From the IMG/VR virus record IMGVR_UViG_2563366949_000003: a stretch of 24,564 bases of DNA; one strand, given 5' to 3'. The notes below the pieces were generated by a model, which saw only the letters and a program-made list of their open reading frames with translations, was not told where the DNA came from and made no database searches. Below, in pieces: positions 2,356-10,609 of this stretch. How positions within the stretch are numbered: the first letter of the stretch is position 1; each line of letters begins with the position of its first letter. Both the position numbers and the translations under genes were made by a program. The stretch is from a virus. Lineage: Duplodnaviria > Heunggongvirae > Uroviricota > Caudoviricetes.

Positions 2356-3351
2356 GTGACCGTGAGAGCACTACTGACCCCTGAAATTGCCCCGCGTATG
2401 GGGATCGTATTGTTCAGGCCAGGTTCAGAGCTGATGCCCCTGTTTATGCAGGGGCGTGTCCTGCTGGAGCCTGAGCCGGAACGTTATTCATCTTTCGCCA
2501 GTGGTGCCGTTCCGGCGGCATCACAACCGCTGGCGGATGATCCTGCCGTTCGGGCCGTGTTCCGCAATGAGGCAGTGATCCGTCGTGCTGGTGGCGTGGA
2601 ATGTCTTGAAAGCTGGTTACTTCGTGAAAAGGGCTGTCAGTGGCCTCATTCCGGATGGCACAGCGAGAACATGACCACAATGCGACACGCGCCGGGCGCA
2701 ATCCGTCTGTGTTGGCACTGCGATAACCAGTTGCGTGATCAGTTCACGGAACGGCTGGAATCAATGGCAACGGATAACTGTGCCCACTGGGTGTTATCTG
2801 TCGTGCGTCGGGATCTCGGTTTTGATGACAGTCACGTAGTGACAATGCCGGAACTGTGCTGGTGGCTGGTTCGTAATGACCTGGCGGATGCCTTACCGGA
2901 AAGTGCAGCCCGTAAGGCACTGAGATTACCGAAGCCTGTTGTGCCGTCTGTCACCCGGGAAAGTGACCTTGTGCCTTCGGTTCCTGCCACCAGCATCATC
3001 CAGGATAAAGCGAAAAAGGTGCTGGCGCTGAAAGTGGATCCGGAGTCGCCGGAGTCTTTTATGTTACGCCCAAAACGTCGCCGCTGGGTTAATGAAAAGT
3101 ACACGCGCTGGGTTAAGACACAGCCGTGTGCATGTTGTGGAAAGCCCGCTGATGATCCCCACCACCTGATAGGCCACGGTCAGGGTGGAATGGGTACAAA
3201 AGCGCATGACCTTTTTGTGTTGCCTTTGTGCAGAAAGCATCACGACGAGCTGCATGCGAATACCGTGGCATTTGAAGAGAATTATGGCTCCCAGCTGGAG
3301 CTGATATTTCGTTTTATCGATCGTGCGCTGGCAATAGGCGTACTGGCGTAA
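2356..3351 (+). CDS. ydfU: DUF968 family protein (YdfU-like) with C-terminal HNH-like Cys/His motif
   Basis: GTG start one base after the upstream stop. The C-terminus CACCGKPADDPHHLIGHG...CRKHHDELH looks like a zinc-binding HNH-like motif. Its position just upstream of Q matches Qin ydfU-quuQ. Confidence 0.65.
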   Translation: MTVRALLTPEIAPRMGIVLFRPGSELMPLFMQGRVLLEPEPERYSSFASGAVPAASQPLADDPAVRAVFRNEAVIRRAGGVECLESWLLREKGCQWPHSGWHSENMTTMRHAPGAIRLCWHCDNQLRDQFTERLESMATDNCAHWVLSVVRRDLGFDDSHVVTMPELCWWLVRNDLADALPESAARKALRLPKPVVPSVTRESDLVPSVPATSIIQDKAKKVLALKVDPESPESFMLRPKRRRWVNEKYTRWVKTQPCACCGKPADDPHHLIGHGQGGMGTKAHDLFVLPLCRKHHDELHANTVAFEENYGSQLELIFRFIDRALAIGVLA

Positions 3352-3364
3352 GTGGAGAACGAGC

Positions 3365-4117
3365 ATGAACCTTGAAGCTTTACCAAAATATTACTCCCCA
3401 AAATCGCCAAAATTGAGTGATGACGCACCGGCGACAGGCTCGGGTGGTTTAACAATAACAGATGTGATGGCTGCGCAGGGGATGGTGCAGTCGAAAGCTC
3501 CGCTTGGTTTTGCCTTATTCCTGGCAAAAGTTGGTGTTCAGGATCCTCAGTTTGCGATTGAAGGTCTGCTCAATTACGCGATGGCAATGGATAATCCGAC
3601 ATTGAACAAATTGAGTGAAGAAATCCGGTTACAGATCATCCCTTACCTTGTGAATTTTGCCTTTGCTGATTATTCCAGGTCTGCGGCAAGTAAGGCTCGC
3701 TGTGAGTATTGTGCTGGTACTGGATTTCATAATGTATTGCGCGAAGTGGTGAAACACTCCAGAAGTGGGGAATCTGTTATCAAGGAAGAGTGGGTGAAGG
3801 AACTATGTCAGCATTGCCATGGTAAGGGAGAAGTCAGCACAGCGTGCAGAGGGTGTAAGGGGAAAGGTATTGTCCTGGATGAAAAAAGAACCCGGCTTCA
3901 TAGCACGCCTGTTTATAAGGTTTGTGGGCGTTGCAATGGAAACCGGTTTAGTCGTTTACCAACGACACTGGCGCGGTGTCATGTCCAGAAGCTGGTACCA
4001 GACCTGACGGATTATCAGTGGTACAAAGGATATGCAGATGTCATTGATAAACTGGTTACAAAGTGCTGGCAGGAAGAAGCATATGCTGAGGTGCAATTAA
4101 GAAAAGTGACGAGATAA
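3365..4117 (+). CDS. quuQ: Late antiterminator Q (QuuQ type, 250 aa, multiple CxxC zinc motifs)
   Basis: The 250-aa product has three CxxC pairs (CEYCAGTG, CQHCHGKGE, CRGCKGKG) and matches the Qin-type Q antiterminator by length and position upstream of the lysis genes. Confidence 0.75.
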   Translation: MNLEALPKYYSPKSPKLSDDAPATGSGGLTITDVMAAQGMVQSKAPLGFALFLAKVGVQDPQFAIEGLLNYAMAMDNPTLNKLSEEIRLQIIPYLVNFAFADYSRSAASKARCEYCAGTGFHNVLREVVKHSRSGESVIKEEWVKELCQHCHGKGEVSTACRGCKGKGIVLDEKRTRLHSTPVYKVCGRCNGNRFSRLPTTLARCHVQKLVPDLTDYQWYKGYADVIDKLVTKCWQEEAYAEVQLRKVTR

Positions 4118-4367
4118 ATGATTTTCACCGAACGATGGCGACATAACGATTGTATTTTCTAAGGAAACGTGCAAAGAGTTTTCCAATGATGAGCCTTATA
4201 TGCATACCGGTGGAAAATATCAATAAGCCGCGCAGAGTGGTTTTTTTGTGGACATAAACTTTGTGCAGAACGGTAACCATTATGGTTGCCGTGAATGCAG
4301 TTTTTTTACATTGCTGGCTTTTTTAGATTTGTGTTAGTTCTTGATATTAACAAGAAGGGGAAAAGAC

Positions 4368-4469
4368 ATGCTAAAACGGCAGGATATGAAGGAAACGGTT
4401 ATGCGTGAATGTTCCAGTGTGATTAACCATATCATCTGGAGAAGCCATCCTGATGCAGGGAAGAGGTAA
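4368..4469 (+). CDS. Small ORF (33 aa), unknown
   Basis: A GGGGA RBS lies 8-9 nt upstream of ATG 4368; product MLKRQDMKETVMRECSSVINHIIWRSHPDAGKR. It is below the ORF-track length cutoff and has no recognised family. Confidence 0.2.
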   Translation: MLKRQDMKETVMRECSSVINHIIWRSHPDAGKR

Positions 4470-4832
4470 CAGTAACGCGCATCAATCAGGCTGCAAATAA
4501 ATGGCTTACGCCGGAAATCTGGCTATCGATGTATTACCGGTTTGTTACCCATGAAGAAAATTAAGGTGATAACGAAACTGATTTTATAGGTGTCTTGTCA
4601 GAGTGTTGCGATGAAACTTGTGTTGGCAGTGCAGGGAAAACAGTAGGATGAAAATTATAAATTGCTTTAAATTAGCTTGATTTTCCTCATGTTATGAGAT
4701 ATTTGTCTTATATTGCTGGTTAATTATGAAAATTTTTGTAAATCTACAGCAATAAAATCCATATTAATTAAAGCACTAGATGCGTTTCTGATTTGTGCAT
4801 GAAACATACATATCATAATGATTAATTGCATC

Positions 4833-4838
4833 TATAAT
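4833..4838 (+). promoter_or_regulatory. Candidate -10 hexamer TATAAT upstream of small-ORF pair
   Basis: A perfect TATAAT sits 40 nt upstream of ATG 4879 in a very AT-rich stretch. No convincing -35 was found. Confidence 0.2.
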
Positions 4839-4878
4839 TACAGATACAGCATTGTGCTGTTAAAAAACTGGAGTCCCC

Positions 4879-4986
4879 ATGAATACATTATATGTAAGTG
4901 ATTCAAATGAAAAATCTCATGACAGGAATAAAAACAATGAGGATAGTAAGGGTAAGGATAATAAAAAAGACAACCGGAAAGAGTAA
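4879..4986 (+). CDS. Small highly charged ORF (35 aa), unknown
   Basis: GGAG lies 8 nt upstream of ATG 4879; product MNTLYVSDSNEKSHDRNKNNEDSKGKDNKKDNRKE is Lys/Asp/Asn-rich and hydrophilic. Confidence 0.25.
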   Translation: MNTLYVSDSNEKSHDRNKNNEDSKGKDNKKDNRKE

Positions 4987-5021
4987 ATAATCTTTCCTGC
5001 ATAAAAATACTAGGGTGGAAT

Positions 5022-5141
5022 ATGTCAGAACATCCAGATTTTGATGACCGTAAGCCTGATGATGAGCCCGTTGAGCGTCCTGATGAGGGGCAACCATTGA
5101 ACCCTTTTTCACCGGATGATAAAAGAGATCCTATTATTTAG
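5022..5141 (+). CDS. Small acidic proline-rich ORF (39 aa), unknown
   Basis: GGTGG lies 5 nt upstream of ATG 5022; product MSEHPDFDDRKPDDEPVERPDEGQPLNPFSPDDKRDPII. A strong intrinsic terminator follows about 50 nt downstream. Confidence 0.3.
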   Translation: MSEHPDFDDRKPDDEPVERPDEGQPLNPFSPDDKRDPII

Positions 5142-5192
5142 ATATAGCAGAATATAGCCGTTTAAAGTAGGTTGTGTTTTGTTGCTATCCTT

Positions 5193-5221
5193 AAACCACC
5201 TCCACAGGAGGTGGTTTTTTA
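5193..5221 (+). terminator. Rho-independent terminator (11-bp stem AAACCACCTCC / GGAGGTGGTTT, U-tract)
   Basis: Perfect inverted repeat with a 4-nt loop, followed by TTTTTT. It lies between the plus-strand small ORFs and the convergent minus-strand ORF at 5278-5463. Confidence 0.6.
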
Positions 5222-5277
5222 CTAATGGAACATTAATTGGCAGATGTGATTGTGTACGACTTATGGGAGGCTTAAGA

Positions 5278-5463
5278 TTATTTTCTGCCAATAATAAAAC
5301 CAAGCGTTAACCCTATGCTTAGAGCAACCACCACGCTAGTCAGTGGATAATTTCTAAATTTATCTTTAACGTTTTCTTTGCCTCCCTGCAAAGCATCGTC
5401 AGCACATGATGCATATTTTTTGACAGTATTAACTATTTCGTTTTCAGATTGATTTGAAGTCAT
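5278..5463 (-). CDS. DUF883 (ElaB/YqjD/YgaM-like) C-tail-anchored small membrane protein
   Basis: The C-terminus NYPLTSVVVALSIGLTLGFIIGRK matches the ElaB-family tail anchor (hydrophobic helix ending GRK/GRR). The ATG at 5461-5463 gives 61 aa; a TTG at 5562 would give 94 aa, closer to typical family length. Confidence 0.45.
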   Translation of the reverse strand: MTSNQSENEIVNTVKKYASCADDALQGGKENVKDKFRNYPLTSVVVALSIGLTLGFIIGRK

Positions 5464-5916
5464 GTTTGAAGTCCTGATGTTAAGTGGCTTTTTAATTATA
5501 GCAGATATGCTTTCAATGATAGGGCGGAGAGTTGTTATTGAGGTGATACTATGGCCACTCAATCAACATTACATAAAATGACGTTTACTCCTGTTTGGCA
5601 CAGTAGCAGAATTTTGCTTCTGCTACTGAAGTCGCTTTAGCACTAGAATATGCAGATGGATAAAGCAGTTCAGCGTATGTACTGCGTCATGCATATCGGT
5701 CTTGCAGATATGACGAGAAGGGGAGACAAGGTGTGTGTAATGTAGAAGTCTTTAAAGTGCTGTCTGGGATAACTCTATACTGAAGTGCAATTGATAAAAG
5801 TAACACGATAAAGGTTTTTCAATGAAGATGGTAACGTGATGCTTGCATTTTTCAAAAAATATGGATAAAATTTTTTCAACGATGGGCTTTGTATACCCGA
5901 CGTTAAGAAAAAGTAG

Positions 5917-5941
5917 AAAACCCGCTGATGAGCGGGTTTTG
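5917..5941. terminator. Bidirectional hairpin terminator (AAAACCCGCT-GATG-AGCGGGTTTT)
   Basis: The stem is flanked by an A-run on one side and a T-run on the other, so it could terminate either strand. It lies about 290 nt downstream of cspF on the minus strand. Confidence 0.45.
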
Positions 5942-6232
5942 TGCTTTAAATGGGGCAATGGTAATGTTGAATCTCATCCCGGGACTCATGTCTGTTAACT
6001 TATTATTTAGCTGGTGACTTGGTTATTTGCCTGATGTTTAAAATGTTTTCTTCCAGTACAATGTCCCTAAACACAATGAGTCTGCTTATTATATTATTAG
6101 CAGAGCTATTACGGCCAAAGTACAGCATAAGCTTTTAAAGCCAGTCAACCAGTCATCAAGACAGACGGGGTTATTCATAAAAACTCTCCATGTGTGATCC
6201 GATGGGGCCTGAAATTAAAGCTTTAATATAGC

Positions 6233-6445
6233 TCATGAAAGGTAAACATTGGCAGCTGAAGGGCCACGCAGAGCATTTATCCGGCAAAATTCCACGCGTA
6301 ATCCGGTGGTAATTTCTTCTGCATCGCGGAGATTGAGCGCTGAAACATGAAGCTGGACATCGATACGACCATCGGATGGGGTGATAAGACCCTTGCCGCT
6401 TTTGCCGTCAAAGGTTTTGACAATTCCTGTCATTTTACGGGACAA
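6233..6445 (-). CDS. cspF: Cold-shock protein CspF-type paralog
   Basis: The 70-aa product [26 protein letters not shown]... is a cold-shock-domain protein of the CspF/CspH subtype, divergent from cspB as in Qin. Confidence 0.85.
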
Positions 6446-6745
6446 AAAAATTCCTTAATACTGATAACTTGGCGCACTATACACACTTTCCTGAAGAAAG
6501 CTATAGTTTTTTGATGGGGTTGAAGATGGCTGGATGTCTAAAATAAACATTGCTTCATATGTTCAACTATGCGTTAATGATTGCGTCGGTTTGAAGAACA
6601 GACGATATACGAAGTAGTTTACTAAAGCAGTTCTCATTTCAGGTGTTATTCACTTATTCCTTCTTTGAGTCTCTCCAATTAAGTACGAAGTCGTTTCTGT
6701 TATACAAGCCATTTATGCCGAAAGGCTCAAGTTAAGGAATGTAGA

Positions 6746-6961
6746 ATGTCAAATAAAATGACTGGTTTAGTAAAATGGTTTAACGCTGATAAAGGTTTTG
6801 GCTTTATTTCTCCTGTTGATGGTAGTAAAGATGTGTTTGTGCATTTTTCTGCGATTCAGAATGATAATTTTCGAACCTTATTTGAAGGTCAAAAGGTTAC
6901 CTTCTCTGTAGAGAGTGGTGCTAAAGGTCCTGCAGCAGCAAATGTCATAATTACTGATTAA
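6746..6961 (+). CDS. cspB: Cold-shock protein CspB
   Basis: The 71-aa product [51 protein letters not shown]... carries the RNP1/RNP2 motifs and is near-identical to E. coli CspB. A long upstream leader is typical of csp genes. Confidence 0.9.
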
Positions 6962-7242
6962 AATTAATAGTTTGTCTGTATACGATAACGAAGAAGGCTG
7001 ATGCCTGAGTGGAGATACAGACAGAGTGGTGAATATTGGATCTCTTTAATAAATAGTAAGGAGATCCAATACATGAAACAATGGCCAGCATATTTGGCAA
7101 TAACTTAATCAGGAAAAGTATGCTAACCATTGTGGTGAAGTGCAGGTTTGCTGCATGAATAGTTTTACAGCAGAAGCTAACTGCTAGCATAGCAAAACAA
7201 AGTGCGTAAGTGGATGACTCCCACAAAAAGCACCACAATATT

Positions 7243-7267
7243 AAACCCGCTCAGGCGGGTTTTTTAT
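7243..7267. terminator. Hairpin terminator (AAACCCGC-TCAG-GCGGGTTTTTT)
   Basis: GC stem followed by TTTTTTATT on the plus strand. It sits between convergent cspB (+) and the minus-strand zinc-ribbon ORF. Confidence 0.55.
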
Positions 7268-7324
7268 TATCTGCTTTAAATATGTTATTAAAATATAAAA
7301 AATACTTGTTACGAATAAAATCAA

Positions 7325-7495
7325 TCAAGCTACAGCTTTAAGATTTGTCTGGAATACTTTGTTGCAATGAGGGCAGATCAAAAGAGCACCTTTTTGTACT
7401 CTTGAAAAACTGTGTTCTGACTCTTGGGTGCAGTTTGGGCAGGAACATTTAACGAGATAATTACGGCGTGATTTTGAGTCTTTACGTTCTGACAT
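7325..7495 (-). CDS. Small zinc-ribbon protein (CxCPxC...CPHC), unknown function
   Basis: AGGAAA lies upstream of the ATG at 7493-7495. The 56-aa product MSERKDSKSRRNYLVKCSCPNCTQESEHSFSRVQKGALLICPHCNKVFQTNLKAVA has two Cys pairs about 20 residues apart. The track's longer form (to 7546) lacks an RBS. Confidence 0.4.
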   Translation of the reverse strand: MSERKDSKSRRNYLVKCSCPNCTQESEHSFSRVQKGALLICPHCNKVFQTNLKAVA

Positions 7496-7713
7496 AGGCT
7501 TTTCCTGTATAAATGGCCGTATACAGTACACTAAATGTGAAAACATATCTCGTATTATTATTTAATATATGATTTTCTTTTAAAATAATTACCCACATTT
7601 TTAATGTGTCTGTTTTTTAGCGCCGTTGAGAACAACGTTTGCTATAAAAACTAACCCATAGACTCCGATCTTTTCAAACATATTGCACCATCTGTGTACA
7701 TCGGGGTGAGGAT

Positions 7714-7929
7714 ATGAAATCAATGGATAAGTTAACAACAGGTATCGCCTATGGCACATCGGCGGGTAATGCTGGTTTCTGGGCATTGCAGTTACTCGAT
7801 AAAGTAACTCCGTCACAGTGGGCTGCAATCGGTGTGCTGGGTAGTCTGGTTTTTGGCCTGCTGACATATCTGACAAACCTTTATTTCAAGATTAAAGAAG
7901 ACAGGCGTAAGGTTGCGAGAAGAGAGTAA
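7714..7929 (+). CDS. essQ: Holin, phage 21 S-type (class II)
   Basis: The 71-aa product [31 protein letters not shown]... has two transmembrane segments and a charged C-terminus, matching S21/EssQ-type holins. Confidence 0.85.
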
Positions 7930-7933
7930 TCCA

Positions 7934-8485
7934 ATGACTCAAGACTATGAACTGGTTGTGAAAGGAGTTCGCAATTTTGAGAATAAAGTGGCGGTAACTG
8001 TAGCCTTACGGGACAAAAAACACTTTGACGGTGAAATTTTTGACCTGGACATCTCGCTGGACCGTGTTGAAGGTGCCGCGCTGGAGTTTTATGAGGCAGC
8101 AGCCAGAAGGAGCATCAGACAGGTCTTCCTGGATGTTGCTGCCGGGTTATGTGAAGGGGATGAGCAGTCGCCGGAAAAGCGCCCCATAATTTTAGAGGCG
8201 CAGAATGTGTGGATAACCTACAAAGGAAAGCTACCGGGAAGAATTACTGGTTCTCTGAAGACGCCACCGACGGCATTGCGGTCAGAAAAAGATGATATTG
8301 AATCGCCCATTGAAAAACTGGAGGGCAGCGTCGCTGATCTGAATAAAAAATTGTCGGTGCTGATTCCTTCTGAAGATGAAAAAAAACGCCGCGATGAGCA
8401 GTTTGCGGCGTTTTACGATTATTGCATTGAAGTTACTCGCAGGAATTTTGTGAAGATTTTTGAGGAGGGTAAATCTCTTCAGTAA
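7934..8485 (+). CDS. DUF1327 (YdfR-like) protein with C-terminal extension
   Basis: ATG 7934 follows the holin stop. The N-terminus MTQDYELVVKGVRNFENK... resembles Qin YdfR, but this ORF is 183 aa versus about 100 aa recalled for YdfR. Its 3' end overlaps the convergent ORF by 53 nt and contains a hairpin. Confidence 0.5.
   Translation: MTQDYELVVKGVRNFENKVAVTVALRDKKHFDGEIFDLDISLDRVEGAALEFYEAAARRSIRQVFLDVAAGLCEGDEQSPEKRPIILEAQNVWITYKGKLPGRITGSLKTPPTALRSEKDDIESPIEKLEGSVADLNKKLSVLIPSEDEKKRRDEQFAAFYDYCIEVTRRNFVKIFEEGKSLQ
8379..8414 (-). terminator. Intrinsic terminator for minus-strand ORF 8433-8693 (GC stem CGCCGC/GCGGCG, then U8 on the minus strand)
   Basis: The inverted repeat 8387-8392 / 8405-8410 is followed on the minus strand by the complement of an 8-A run. 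It lies about 20 nt past the minus-strand stop. Confidence 0.5.
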
Positions 8486-8693
8486 GCTTATTGGCGGACG
8501 CTGCAATTAATTCAGGAAGGTCCGCAAGGTCATCTGTCAGTGGATATGATGAAAAATCGGCGGCAGTTCTGTTAAGAAGCGCTTTAACTAATTCCTTTTC
8601 CTTCTCCGGCAACAAGTTGATTAGAGCTACGACTGCTTGCCTGAGTGCGATTAAATCAGCAAAAGTTTGTTTTGGTAGATTTGTGTAATCCAT
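8433..8693 (-). CDS. Hypothetical acidic protein (86 aa), convergent to the late operon inside the lysis cassette
   Basis: AGAGG lies 6 nt upstream of the ATG at 8691-8693, and a strong terminator follows the stop. The product MDYTNLPKQTFADLIALRQAVVALINLLPEKEKELVKALLNRTAADFSSYPLTDDLADLPELIAASANKLTEEIYPPQKSSQNSCE has no recognised family. Confidence 0.4.
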   Translation of the reverse strand: MDYTNLPKQTFADLIALRQAVVALINLLPEKEKELVKALLNRTAADFSSYPLTDDLADLPELIAASANKLTEEIYPPQKSSQNSCE

Positions 8694-9834: not shown

Positions 9835-10085
9835 ATTAATATTAAATCGGATTATTTTTAGCGCTGAATGTGAAATTTAAATAAAAAGGACTCTTCCATG
9901 AGTCAAAATCCTTGAAATCTTAAGGGTAAGATAAAAGGTCATTAGACAGAATGACACGTTTTATTAATAAATAAAGCTATTGTTTCATTCGTGTGTTTTT
10001 CTTTACAAAAGTAATCCTTGCTATGGTTGGTTAATCATGCGTTAATGGTGTTCTGGTTTGTTACAAAATTATCTGAAGCAGTCAT

Positions 10086-10094
10086 TGTTATAAT
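10086..10094 (+). promoter_or_regulatory. Candidate extended -10 promoter element (TGTTATAAT) for cspI
   Basis: A perfect TGnTATAAT lies about 105 nt upstream of the cspI ATG, consistent with the long leaders of csp genes. It has not been tested. Confidence 0.3.
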
Positions 10095-10197
10095 TTTATT
10101 ATTTGTACCTCTTGAGATTTCCTTGTTGGTTTTTCTCTCTGATATTTTTTTTCGGACCATTCTGCCCAAGGGCTAACTTCTTCAAAAGGTAATAATG

Positions 10198-10410
10198 ATG
10201 TCTAACAAAATGACTGGTTTAGTGAAATGGTTTAACCCTGAAAAAGGTTTTGGTTTCATCACGCCGAAAGATGGTAGCAAAGATGTGTTTGTCCATTTCT
10301 CAGCTATTCAGAGCAACGATTTCAAAACGTTAACTGAGAATCAGGAAGTCGAATTTGGTATTGAGAACGGACCTAAAGGCCCCGCGGCTGTTCATGTTGT
10401 GGCACTTTGA
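10198..10410 (+). CDS. cspI: Cold-shock protein CspI
   Basis: The 70-aa product [70 protein letters not shown] matches CspI as recalled. Confidence 0.9.
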
Positions 10411-10609
10411 GGTAGAAAATATTACAAACCATATTCACTTTAGATGCCCGTGTTGCCATGGTTCTCAGTATAGAACATCATCTTTTGATGTTTCTGACAG
10501 GAATCCTTTCGGGGCAAAATGTATCTTTTGTAAATCAATGATGATTACATTTGATAATATTTCACAATACTTAAATGTTAGCCGTCTGTCGTTAGATTTA
10601 AGAAAGTGA
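10394..10609 (+). CDS. Candidate small zinc-ribbon ORF (CPCCHG...CIFC) downstream of cspI
   Basis: An in-frame ATG at 10394 overlaps the cspI 3' end, and the stop lies 6 nt before the terminator at 10615. The RBS is weak and the start uncertain; the track's TTG start is at 10355. Confidence 0.3.

Follow-up and report, generated by a model that had tools for sequence, protein, structure and literature searches.

A putative moron of Qin-like prophages encodes a 61-residue protein with a YqjD/ElaB-like membrane anchor

We analysed a 24,564-nucleotide stretch of tailed-phage DNA (IMG/VR virus record IMGVR_UViG_2563366949_000003; the whole stretch is called the window below), in which, in this order, a DUF968 gene, Q, cspF, cspB, ynfU, the holin, lysozyme and Rz genes, cspI, and terminase and head genes mark a Qin-like lambdoid prophage. 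Our subject is a short minus-strand gene of this prophage. On balance, we think it probable that the gene is a moron with its own promoter and terminator, that it encodes a 61-residue C-tail-anchored inner-membrane protein with a YqjD/ElaB-like anchor, and that this protein plays a membrane-proximal role of benefit to the lysogen. The last ∼29 residues, which comprise a kink at Pro40, the G51xxxG55xxxG59 helix and a terminal RK dipeptide, are specifically YqjD/ElaB-like as judged by profile comparison, yet the protein is not a DUF883 member by curated criteria. The accurate label is ‘DUF883-like tail anchor only’; ‘ribosome-binding protein’ is inaccurate.

The minus-strand open reading frame (ORF) with an ElaB-like C-terminal end that was claimed in an initial annotation of this DNA is present in the sequence. 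It runs from 5278 to 5562, ends in NYPLTSVVVALSIGLTLGFIIGRK, and encodes 94 residues from TTG 5562 or 61 residues from the internal ATG 5463. The choice between these starts had been left ambiguous. We take the start codon to be ATG 5463, because it has an AGGA ribosome-binding site (5475–5472, 8 nt 5′ of the ATG), because the relatives of the protein begin at the same residue, and because a conserved −10 element (5500–5495) falls inside the 94-residue extension. In the relatives, in-frame stop codons lie 5–10 codons upstream and there is no alternative start. We therefore reject the 94-residue form, whose TTG also lacks a Shine–Dalgarno sequence and whose extension is not conserved. In the identical chromosome of E. 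coli strain 144, the Prokaryotic Genome Annotation Pipeline (PGAP) annotates the 61-residue form as hypothetical protein WP_000203370.1.

A word-indexed protein search returned near-identical E. coli sequences only; diverged relatives came to light when 1.84 billion representative proteins were searched exhaustively with HMMER, and a profile search and scans of species genomes and IMG/VR contigs brought in others. They form three subgroups, of 61 residues in Escherichia (including E. marmotae), 64 residues in Leclercia, Silvania and Atlantibacter, and 82 residues in Enterobacter. The family is confined to lambdoid prophages of Enterobacteriaceae. The window protein matches phrog_11629 (PHROGs v4) over its full length (E = 4.8e-47, residues 1–61 on profile positions 1–61 of 61), as do 11 of 11 family members in all; this PHROG is the family of the window protein itself and has no functional annotation, so that membership is silent on mechanism. 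At least 1000 contigs encode the exact 61-residue protein. Of 5426 complete E. coli genomes, 40 carry the whole AT-rich island in which its gene lies, always at ≥ 99% identity; HannyBb and PhiR63_1, both deposited phage genomes, have it as well, as do 16 IMG/VR contigs. Three long repetitive sequences at the top of the exhaustive search (P0003, P0006 and P0008) owed their rank to summed short-repeat matches; they appear to be assembly artefacts or unrelated repeat proteins, and were not used.

The relatives in other genera are 36–57% identical to the window protein. Their length is preserved, as are three motifs (K-x-Y-A, D-A and P-x-T) and a terminal L-G-F-x-x-G-R-R/K, while between subgroups the flanking DNA is unalignable, except for the Shine–Dalgarno sequence and one upstream block. 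The ratio of non-synonymous to synonymous substitution rates (dN/dS; Nei–Gojobori) is 0.22–0.44 between subgroups, with dS saturated, and two close Leclercia-type alleles show two synonymous and no non-synonymous differences. On this sequence evidence, the 61-residue ORF is a genuine gene under purifying selection. One could instead regard it as a non-functional chance ORF in AT-rich intergenic DNA, since it is short, is labelled only as hypothetical by NCBI, and is barely less polymorphic within E. coli than the rest of the island (three variable sites in 186 nt, compared with 34 in 1437 nt), although this is too little variation to be informative. The retention of length and motifs beside unalignable flanks, a dN/dS below 0.5, the conservation of the Shine–Dalgarno sequence and −10 element, and the wide occurrence of the exact protein all argue against chance, which is strongly disfavoured and which we consider the remotest of the explanations weighed here.

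The initial annotation had proposed a tail-anchored membrane protein and suggested prediction of transmembrane helices as a check. Hydropathy analysis bears this out: the sole hydrophobic segment spans residues 43–59 (mean Kyte–Doolittle value 2.27) and is followed only by RK, the same layout as in ElaB and YqjD. AlphaFold2, given an 11-sequence alignment, predicts a helix over residues 4–38, a break at residues 39–40 (Pro40) and a second helix over residues 40–60, with a mean predicted local distance difference test (pLDDT) score of 66. Residues 1–39 are predicted to form a single cytoplasmic helix, amphipathic with a hydrophobic moment of up to 0.50, and have no detectable relative. Within the membrane helix, G51, G55 and G59 (i, i+4, i+8) make up a GxxxGxxxG glycine zipper. 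The residues invariant in the family are M1, E7, K15, Y17, A18, D23, K33, K35, P40, T42, L54, G55, F56, G59 and R60; the C-terminal dipeptide is RK in the window protein and RR in its relatives. Nothing useful came from a sequence search of the PDB (best E = 0.72), from a fold search of BFVD (best E = 2.9) or from a search of NCBIfam, whose ElaB model matched a single relative (E = 0.084).

We then compared the protein with the DUF883 family, of which the initial annotation had taken it to be a prophage copy. DUF883_C (PF19029) is the sole Pfam match of the window protein, at 12.3 bits (E = 0.14) against a gathering score of 27, and it is likewise matched below threshold by all five relatives tested (11.8–16.1 bits, best E = 0.0023; the highest score is that of P0012). 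ElaB, YqjD and YgaM score 62.5, 57 and 52.3 bits respectively. The DUF883 N-terminal domain (PF05957), which is matched at 38–53 bits by these three proteins, is not matched by the window protein or by the five relatives even at E ≤ 10. An above-threshold DUF883 match, on which the initial annotation had staked its claim, was thus obtained with neither profile. The claim of family membership is therefore not supported, the protein being in addition about half as long as the family members and devoid of their N-terminal domain. Nor can the ribosome association of the family be transferred to this protein, which lacks the part of YqjD on which binding to and inactivation of ribosomes depend. N-terminal truncation of YqjD abolishes ribosome inactivation, and its transmembrane segment mediates dimerisation (Njenga et al., bioRxiv 10.1101/2024.08.16.608256). 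Ribosome binding by the 61-residue protein through the DUF883 interface appears unlikely from its sequence.

The comparison with ElaB, YqjD and YgaM that had also been suggested gave a more favourable result, as the likeness of the anchor is specific. Aligned by hhalign, the family matches the three K-12 paralogues with 90% probability (E = 1.6e-6) over 28 columns, and a non-redundant 12-sequence DUF883 profile with 94% probability (E = 1.2e-7) over 29 columns, a length too short to separate homology from convergence. The real score of 36 compares with maxima of 16.4 among 100 whole-column shuffles and 17 among 200 tail-only shuffles, and with 15.7 for the reversed sequence. Sixteen unrelated membrane proteins of E. 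coli or its prophages gave probabilities of ≤ 3%, compared with 90% for YqjD, 78% for ElaB and 10.5% for YgaM. Forcing longer alignments, with hidden Markov models or hhalign, brought out nothing significant N-terminal to the last ∼29 residues. Because the similarity is short and sub-threshold, and because no true DUF883 protein was matched in the exhaustive search, convergence on a short glycine-zipper anchor may also account for it.

The hallmarks described for the DUF883 family include a kink proline, transmembrane glycines, a terminal RR or RK, a Trp after the proline, and the N-terminal domain (bioRxiv 10.1101/2024.08.16.608256). The first three are found here. Pro40 is invariant in 11 of 11 family sequences and aligns with P80 of YqjD and ElaB; G55 and G59 are invariant in the family, and G51 and G55 align with G91 and G95 of ElaB, in which the zipper has the same register; and the basic dipeptide forms the two residues past the hydrophobic segment, as in ElaB. 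The protein thus shares with YqjD, ElaB and YgaM a single C-terminal hydrophobic helix capped by two basic residues, a helix-breaking proline just ahead of it, a helical cytoplasmic part and a sigma-S-compatible promoter motif, with hhalign probabilities of 78–94% over the anchor. It differs from them in having 61 residues rather than 101–109, in lacking the N-terminal domain, in its DUF883_C score (12 bits rather than 52–62), in the residue that follows the proline, and in being exclusively prophage-encoded and never adjacent to yqjE or yqjK.

Database labels reflect this partial likeness unevenly. UniRef names the exact protein ‘DUF883 domain-containing protein’, and the Joint Genome Institute (JGI) names its relatives ‘ElaB/YqjD/DUF883 family membrane-anchored ribosome-binding protein’, while NCBI labels family proteins either ‘hypothetical’ or ‘CsbD family’. 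The last name, given to the 82-residue Enterobacter relatives, is to be set aside, as they have no Pfam CsbD match. The DUF883 label is therefore already known from the databases; what is new is the anchor-only, phage-borne version. A literature search for ‘DUF883’ and ‘prophage’ together gave one unrelated Chryseobacterium genome report, in which each word appears once.

The gene shows the textbook behaviour of a moron (defined in PMC3594210), because it is on the strand opposite the late genes, occupies positions of four kinds, is AT-rich compared with its surroundings, and lies in an island absent from K-12 Qin. Late-gene markers (Q, holin, lysozyme, Rz, Nu1 and tail genes) were mapped on 38 loci from the genome and IMG/VR scans (L014–L051), and wherever detected they are on the strand opposite the family gene; the called genes agree for a further five loci (L006–L010). 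In Escherichia, the gene lies between Q and cspF. It is beside a cspB/cspF pair in L014–L016. In Enterobacter, it has Rz on one side and gnsAB/Nu1 on the other, and in Silvania its neighbours are gnsAB and Nu1. In the Leclercia type, it is past the tail-fibre genes at the prophage end, where the host flank varies and the phage flank is constant. The ORF has a GC content of 35% and the island one of ∼37%, compared with 46–47% for Q, the lysis genes and neighbouring phage genes (46–50% elsewhere). The gene, in the initial annotation a candidate for lysogenic conversion, thus behaves as an independently transcribed prophage accessory gene, its own promoter and terminator being putative.

This behaviour resembles that of lambda bor and lom and of the Qin morons cspB, cspF, cspI, gnsB and ynfN, which are late-region accessory genes of lambdoid prophages with their own expression signals, and several of which face against late transcription. 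Their products are unrelated to the 61-residue protein, and in the window the gene is placed between Q and an intact pR′ instead of inside the late transcript. The family repeatedly adjoins csp and gns morons. In Leclercia, Atlantibacter and Enterobacter prophages (L014–L016 and L042–L051), the gene is within 1–2 kb of cspB/cspF-like or gnsAB-like genes, which suggests a recurring cluster of cold-shock and stress morons in lambdoid prophages across genera.

CTAT[AG][AG]TTAA is the sole upstream block that is invariant among the three diverged subgroups, and it is located 29–31 nt before the ATG. Its version in the window, TGCTATAATTAA (5503–5492), is a perfect extended −10 element. Of the 11 positions of the sigma-S −10 consensus KCTAYRCTTAA, as given by Weber et al. 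(2005) and quoted in PMC5650638, the block matches 10 both in the window and in Enterobacter, and 9 in the Leclercia type. A good −35 element was not found upstream, which suits both extended −10 and sigma-S promoters. Transcription would then start near 5488 and leave a 5′ untranslated region of ∼25 nt. The pattern TGNTATAAT occurs just twice in the 24.5-kb window; the second site (10086–10094) is at the start of the cspI element. A consensus promoter scan that demanded four of six matches in the −35 passed over both this promoter and pR′.

On the 3′ side, a palindromic hairpin is predicted at −18 kcal/mol on either strand (5193–5217; z-scores of −4.5 and −3.4). On the plus strand it is a strong intrinsic terminator, with six T after the hairpin; on the minus strand, where it lies ∼60 nt past the stop codon of the gene, it is a weaker one, with three U. 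The Enterobacter relative has a similar arrangement of A-tract, hairpin and U-tract 3′ of its gene. The positions of these and other features are collected in Table 1.

Table 1. Positions in the window of the 61-residue protein gene, its putative expression signals and the surrounding modules.
Feature	Position	Strand	Description
Coding sequence, 61-residue tail-anchored protein	5278..5463	−	ATG 5463–5461; stop TAA 5280–5278
Shine–Dalgarno sequence AGGA	5472..5475	−	Read from the sequence; relatives have GGAGG or AGGAG at the same position
Probable promoter	5492..5503	−	Extended −10 TGCTATAAT (5503–5495), then TAA; conserved motif with putative promoter function
Palindromic hairpin	5193..5220	both	AAACCACCTCC-aca-GGAGGTGGTTT; intrinsic terminator-like
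AT-rich island with the 61-residue protein gene	4256..5753		∼1.5 kb, ∼37% GC; absent from K-12 Qin
Left module copy, joined to intact Q	4060..4255	+	TTGTAT 4150–4155, 17 nt, degenerate −10 AAAGAG
Right module copy	5754..5950	+	58-nt Q 3′ remnant (stop 5809–5811), then intact lambda-type pR′

The initial annotation had described the gene as transcribed against the late operon. This is the case for the Enterobacter and Leclercia prophage relatives but probably not for the window, where the gene is upstream of the intact pR′ (5843–5886). Q itself (3365–4117) is recognised by Pfam Antiterm (E = 4e-50). K-12 Qin aligns with window positions 3034–4158 at 89% identity and with 5782–8000 at 97%, and 70 K-12 bases, made up of the last 30 nt of Q and the 40 nt that follow, are present twice in the window. 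They belong to a diverged direct repeat of ∼195 nt (4060–4255 and 5754–5950), each copy of which consists of a Q 3′ end, a pR′-like promoter and a tR′-like hairpin. In the left copy, the promoter is followed by an altered pause element, AATGATGAG, and then by a hairpin (4225–4243) and eight T. In the right copy, the promoter and pause elements show no difference from K-12 Qin. The layout of its pR′ is exactly that of lambda, and the elements compare as follows: a −35 of TTGCAT (5843–5848) versus TTGACT, a spacer of 17 nt in both, a −10 of TAAAAT (5866–5871) versus TAAATT, a gap of tttttc versus tgactc, and the pause element AACGATGGG (5878–5886) in both. The tR′ hairpin of the right copy (5917–5940; −24 kcal/mol, z-score −5.8) is followed by TTTTGTGCTTT.

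The duplicated module resembles a scar left when two Qin-like phages recombined, and it prompts the question of which promoter is the target of Q; judging from the state of its elements, the right pR′ copy is most likely the one that drives late transcription. Because the gene lies between the two copies, upstream of the intact pR′, it is probably not opposed by late transcription at this locus. The plus-strand terminators at 4225–4243 and 5193–5220 would shield it from rightward read-through.

Other small features surround the gene. Two tiny plus-strand ORFs, 4879–4986 and 5022–5141, encode hydrophilic products of 35 residues (rich in K, N and D) and 39 residues (acidic and proline-rich); each has a Shine–Dalgarno sequence, and they converge with the 61-residue protein gene on the hairpin at 5193–5220. 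They are annotated as hypothetical in phage PhiR63_1 and have no Pfam match, their sole PHROG match being insignificant (E = 0.36); they may constitute a second small transcription unit in the island. Just upstream of the promoter, a 62-nt stretch (5539–5600) is 82% identical to part of a gene for a ‘P22AR C-terminal domain-containing protein’ that is found in 124 other E. coli genomes, and could be a short mosaic piece or simply a coincidence. Further away, an 86-residue minus-strand ORF (8433–8693; PGAP hypothetical protein WP_001557934.1, no above-threshold Pfam match) runs antisense to the lysis cassette, is flanked by a truncated ydfR pseudogene and by the gene for lysozyme, and may be another moron-like insertion. 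The Rfam cspA thermoregulator matches the plus strand at 6585–7024 (159 bits) and 10040–10456 (110 bits), and each match takes in the 5′ untranslated region and coding region of a prophage gene, cspB and cspI respectively.

Taken together, we propose the following scheme. In the lysogen, the gene would be transcribed from the conserved extended −10 element, which is sigma-S/sigma-70-like; given this element, expression would probably be linked to stationary phase or stress, and the transcript would end at the shared bidirectional hairpin. The protein would be inserted post-translationally into the inner membrane, with its 39-residue amphipathic N-terminal helix on the cytoplasmic face, and would dimerise through the glycine zipper, as YqjD does. 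Its anchor, host-derived or convergent, would have been taken by the phage for a membrane-proximal role benefiting the lysogen, perhaps in stress physiology or in the modulation of host DUF883 proteins, for which HK97 gp15 and its relation to YebO offer a precedent. As far as sequence and gene neighbourhood can tell, a stress- or hibernation-related membrane role, including possible interaction with host DUF883 proteins, is the most likely function. A stress-related role fits because csp and gns morons frequently neighbour the family gene. A complete ribosome-hibernation factor is unlikely because the DUF883 N-terminal domain is absent.

Several observations weigh against this scheme. The DUF883_C match is sub-threshold and the similarity is confined to one membrane helix and a few flanking residues; in the exhaustive HMMER search, for which the single sequence was the query, no true DUF883 protein came up at E ≤ 0.001. 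The Trp that follows the proline in the three E. coli subfamilies is replaced by Leu41 here and by Thr, Ala or Arg in the relatives, and confidence in the AlphaFold2 model is low to moderate. As for the expression signals, the sigma-S reading of the promoter comes from a motif match, the minus-strand U-tract has only three U, and a clear terminator was not found 3′ of the gene in the Leclercia-type relative. Finally, our literature search found no paper that mentions WP_000203370.1, phrog_11629, HannyBb or PhiR63_1.

Chief among the functional rivals is an anti-phage protein of the inner membrane, acting in superinfection exclusion or otherwise and modelled on HK97 gp15. Exclusion factors are known to include a class of small single-pass inner-membrane proteins that lambdoid prophages express in the repressed state, and gp15 is itself a moron derived from a host small membrane protein, YebO (PMC3594210). 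The 61-residue protein would fit this class; its gene behaves as a moron, occurs only in prophages, and in some relatives adjoins tail-fibre genes. Like gp15, the protein appears to be small, to span the inner membrane once and to be the product of a lambdoid moron with its own transcription; part of its sequence likewise resembles a host small membrane protein, the rest having diverged (PMC3594210). The two proteins nevertheless have no sequence relationship, and gp15 resembles YebO at its N-terminus, whereas the likeness here is at the C-terminal anchor. No PADLOC defence model is matched, although gp15-like exclusion proteins are rarely modelled in PADLOC; the frequent neighbours are cold-shock and stress morons (cspB, cspF and gnsAB) rather than known exclusion genes, and no sequence feature bears on phage entry. 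We regard exclusion as unlikely. Still less probable, in our estimate, is the reading of the initial annotation, implied also by the UniRef and JGI names, in which the gene encodes a true prophage paralogue of ElaB/YqjD/YgaM whose function is to tether ribosomes to the membrane and inactivate them. The specific anchor similarity detected by hhalign, the kink proline, transmembrane glycines and terminal RK, and the sigma-S-like −10 element are what such a paralogue would have, but the PF19029 score is far below both its cutoff and the range of true members, PF05957 is unmatched, the NCBIfam ElaB model reaches one relative only, and no similarity extends beyond the last ∼29 residues. Moreover, the inactivating function of YqjD is lost with its N-terminal region, in place of which there are here 39 cytoplasmic residues unrelated to it. 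Full ribosome-hibernation function is accordingly disfavoured.

A membrane-damaging small toxin of the type I kind, or an auxiliary lysis or holin regulator, would also be small and hydrophobic-tailed; related elements carry hok-type genes, a lysis cassette is nearby in the window, and a terminator-like hairpin (5393–5412) on the antisense strand within the ORF could be read as the mark of an antisense RNA. We reject this antisense-RNA idea, as the hairpin is not conserved: it and the T-run stem from AAAAAA Lys-Lys codons and are absent from the relatives, and no antisense promoter was found. Nor does the gene keep a constant place with respect to the lysis genes, against which it always faces, and hhalign gives probabilities of 0.1% against HokD and 0.3% against the holin. 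Known type I toxins are unlike a protein with a long hydrophilic N-terminal helix. We find a toxin or lysis role very improbable and, like the chance ORF, disfavoured.

A bolder extension of the proposed stress-related role is that the stripped-down YqjD/ElaB anchor pairs through the shared zipper helix with host YqjD, ElaB or YgaM, and acts as a dominant-negative ‘anti-hibernation’ factor or as a new adaptor, so that the prophage tunes ribosome silencing in stationary-phase or stressed lysogens. Ribosome inactivation by YqjD needs transmembrane-mediated dimerisation and both N-termini (Njenga et al., bioRxiv 10.1101/2024.08.16.608256). We suggest dominant-negative action because YqjD thus requires a dimer with both N-termini, and an anchor-only partner would come without one. 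We give this idea a slim chance.

Should the likeness of the anchor be convergent, the gene would join the many other uncharacterised morons for small membrane proteins, and what this work chiefly contributes would be its correct annotation, namely the start at ATG 5463, the anchor-only label and the position relative to pR′. If the likeness reflects shared ancestry or shared partners, the protein would be the first phage-borne relative of membrane-tethered ribosome-hibernation factors. Were this true, it would provide a natural ‘anchor-only’ version that makes the model of a transmembrane-mediated YqjD dimer directly testable, and lysogenic conversion by Qin-like prophages, in which cold-shock genes are already present, would gain a stress/translation axis.

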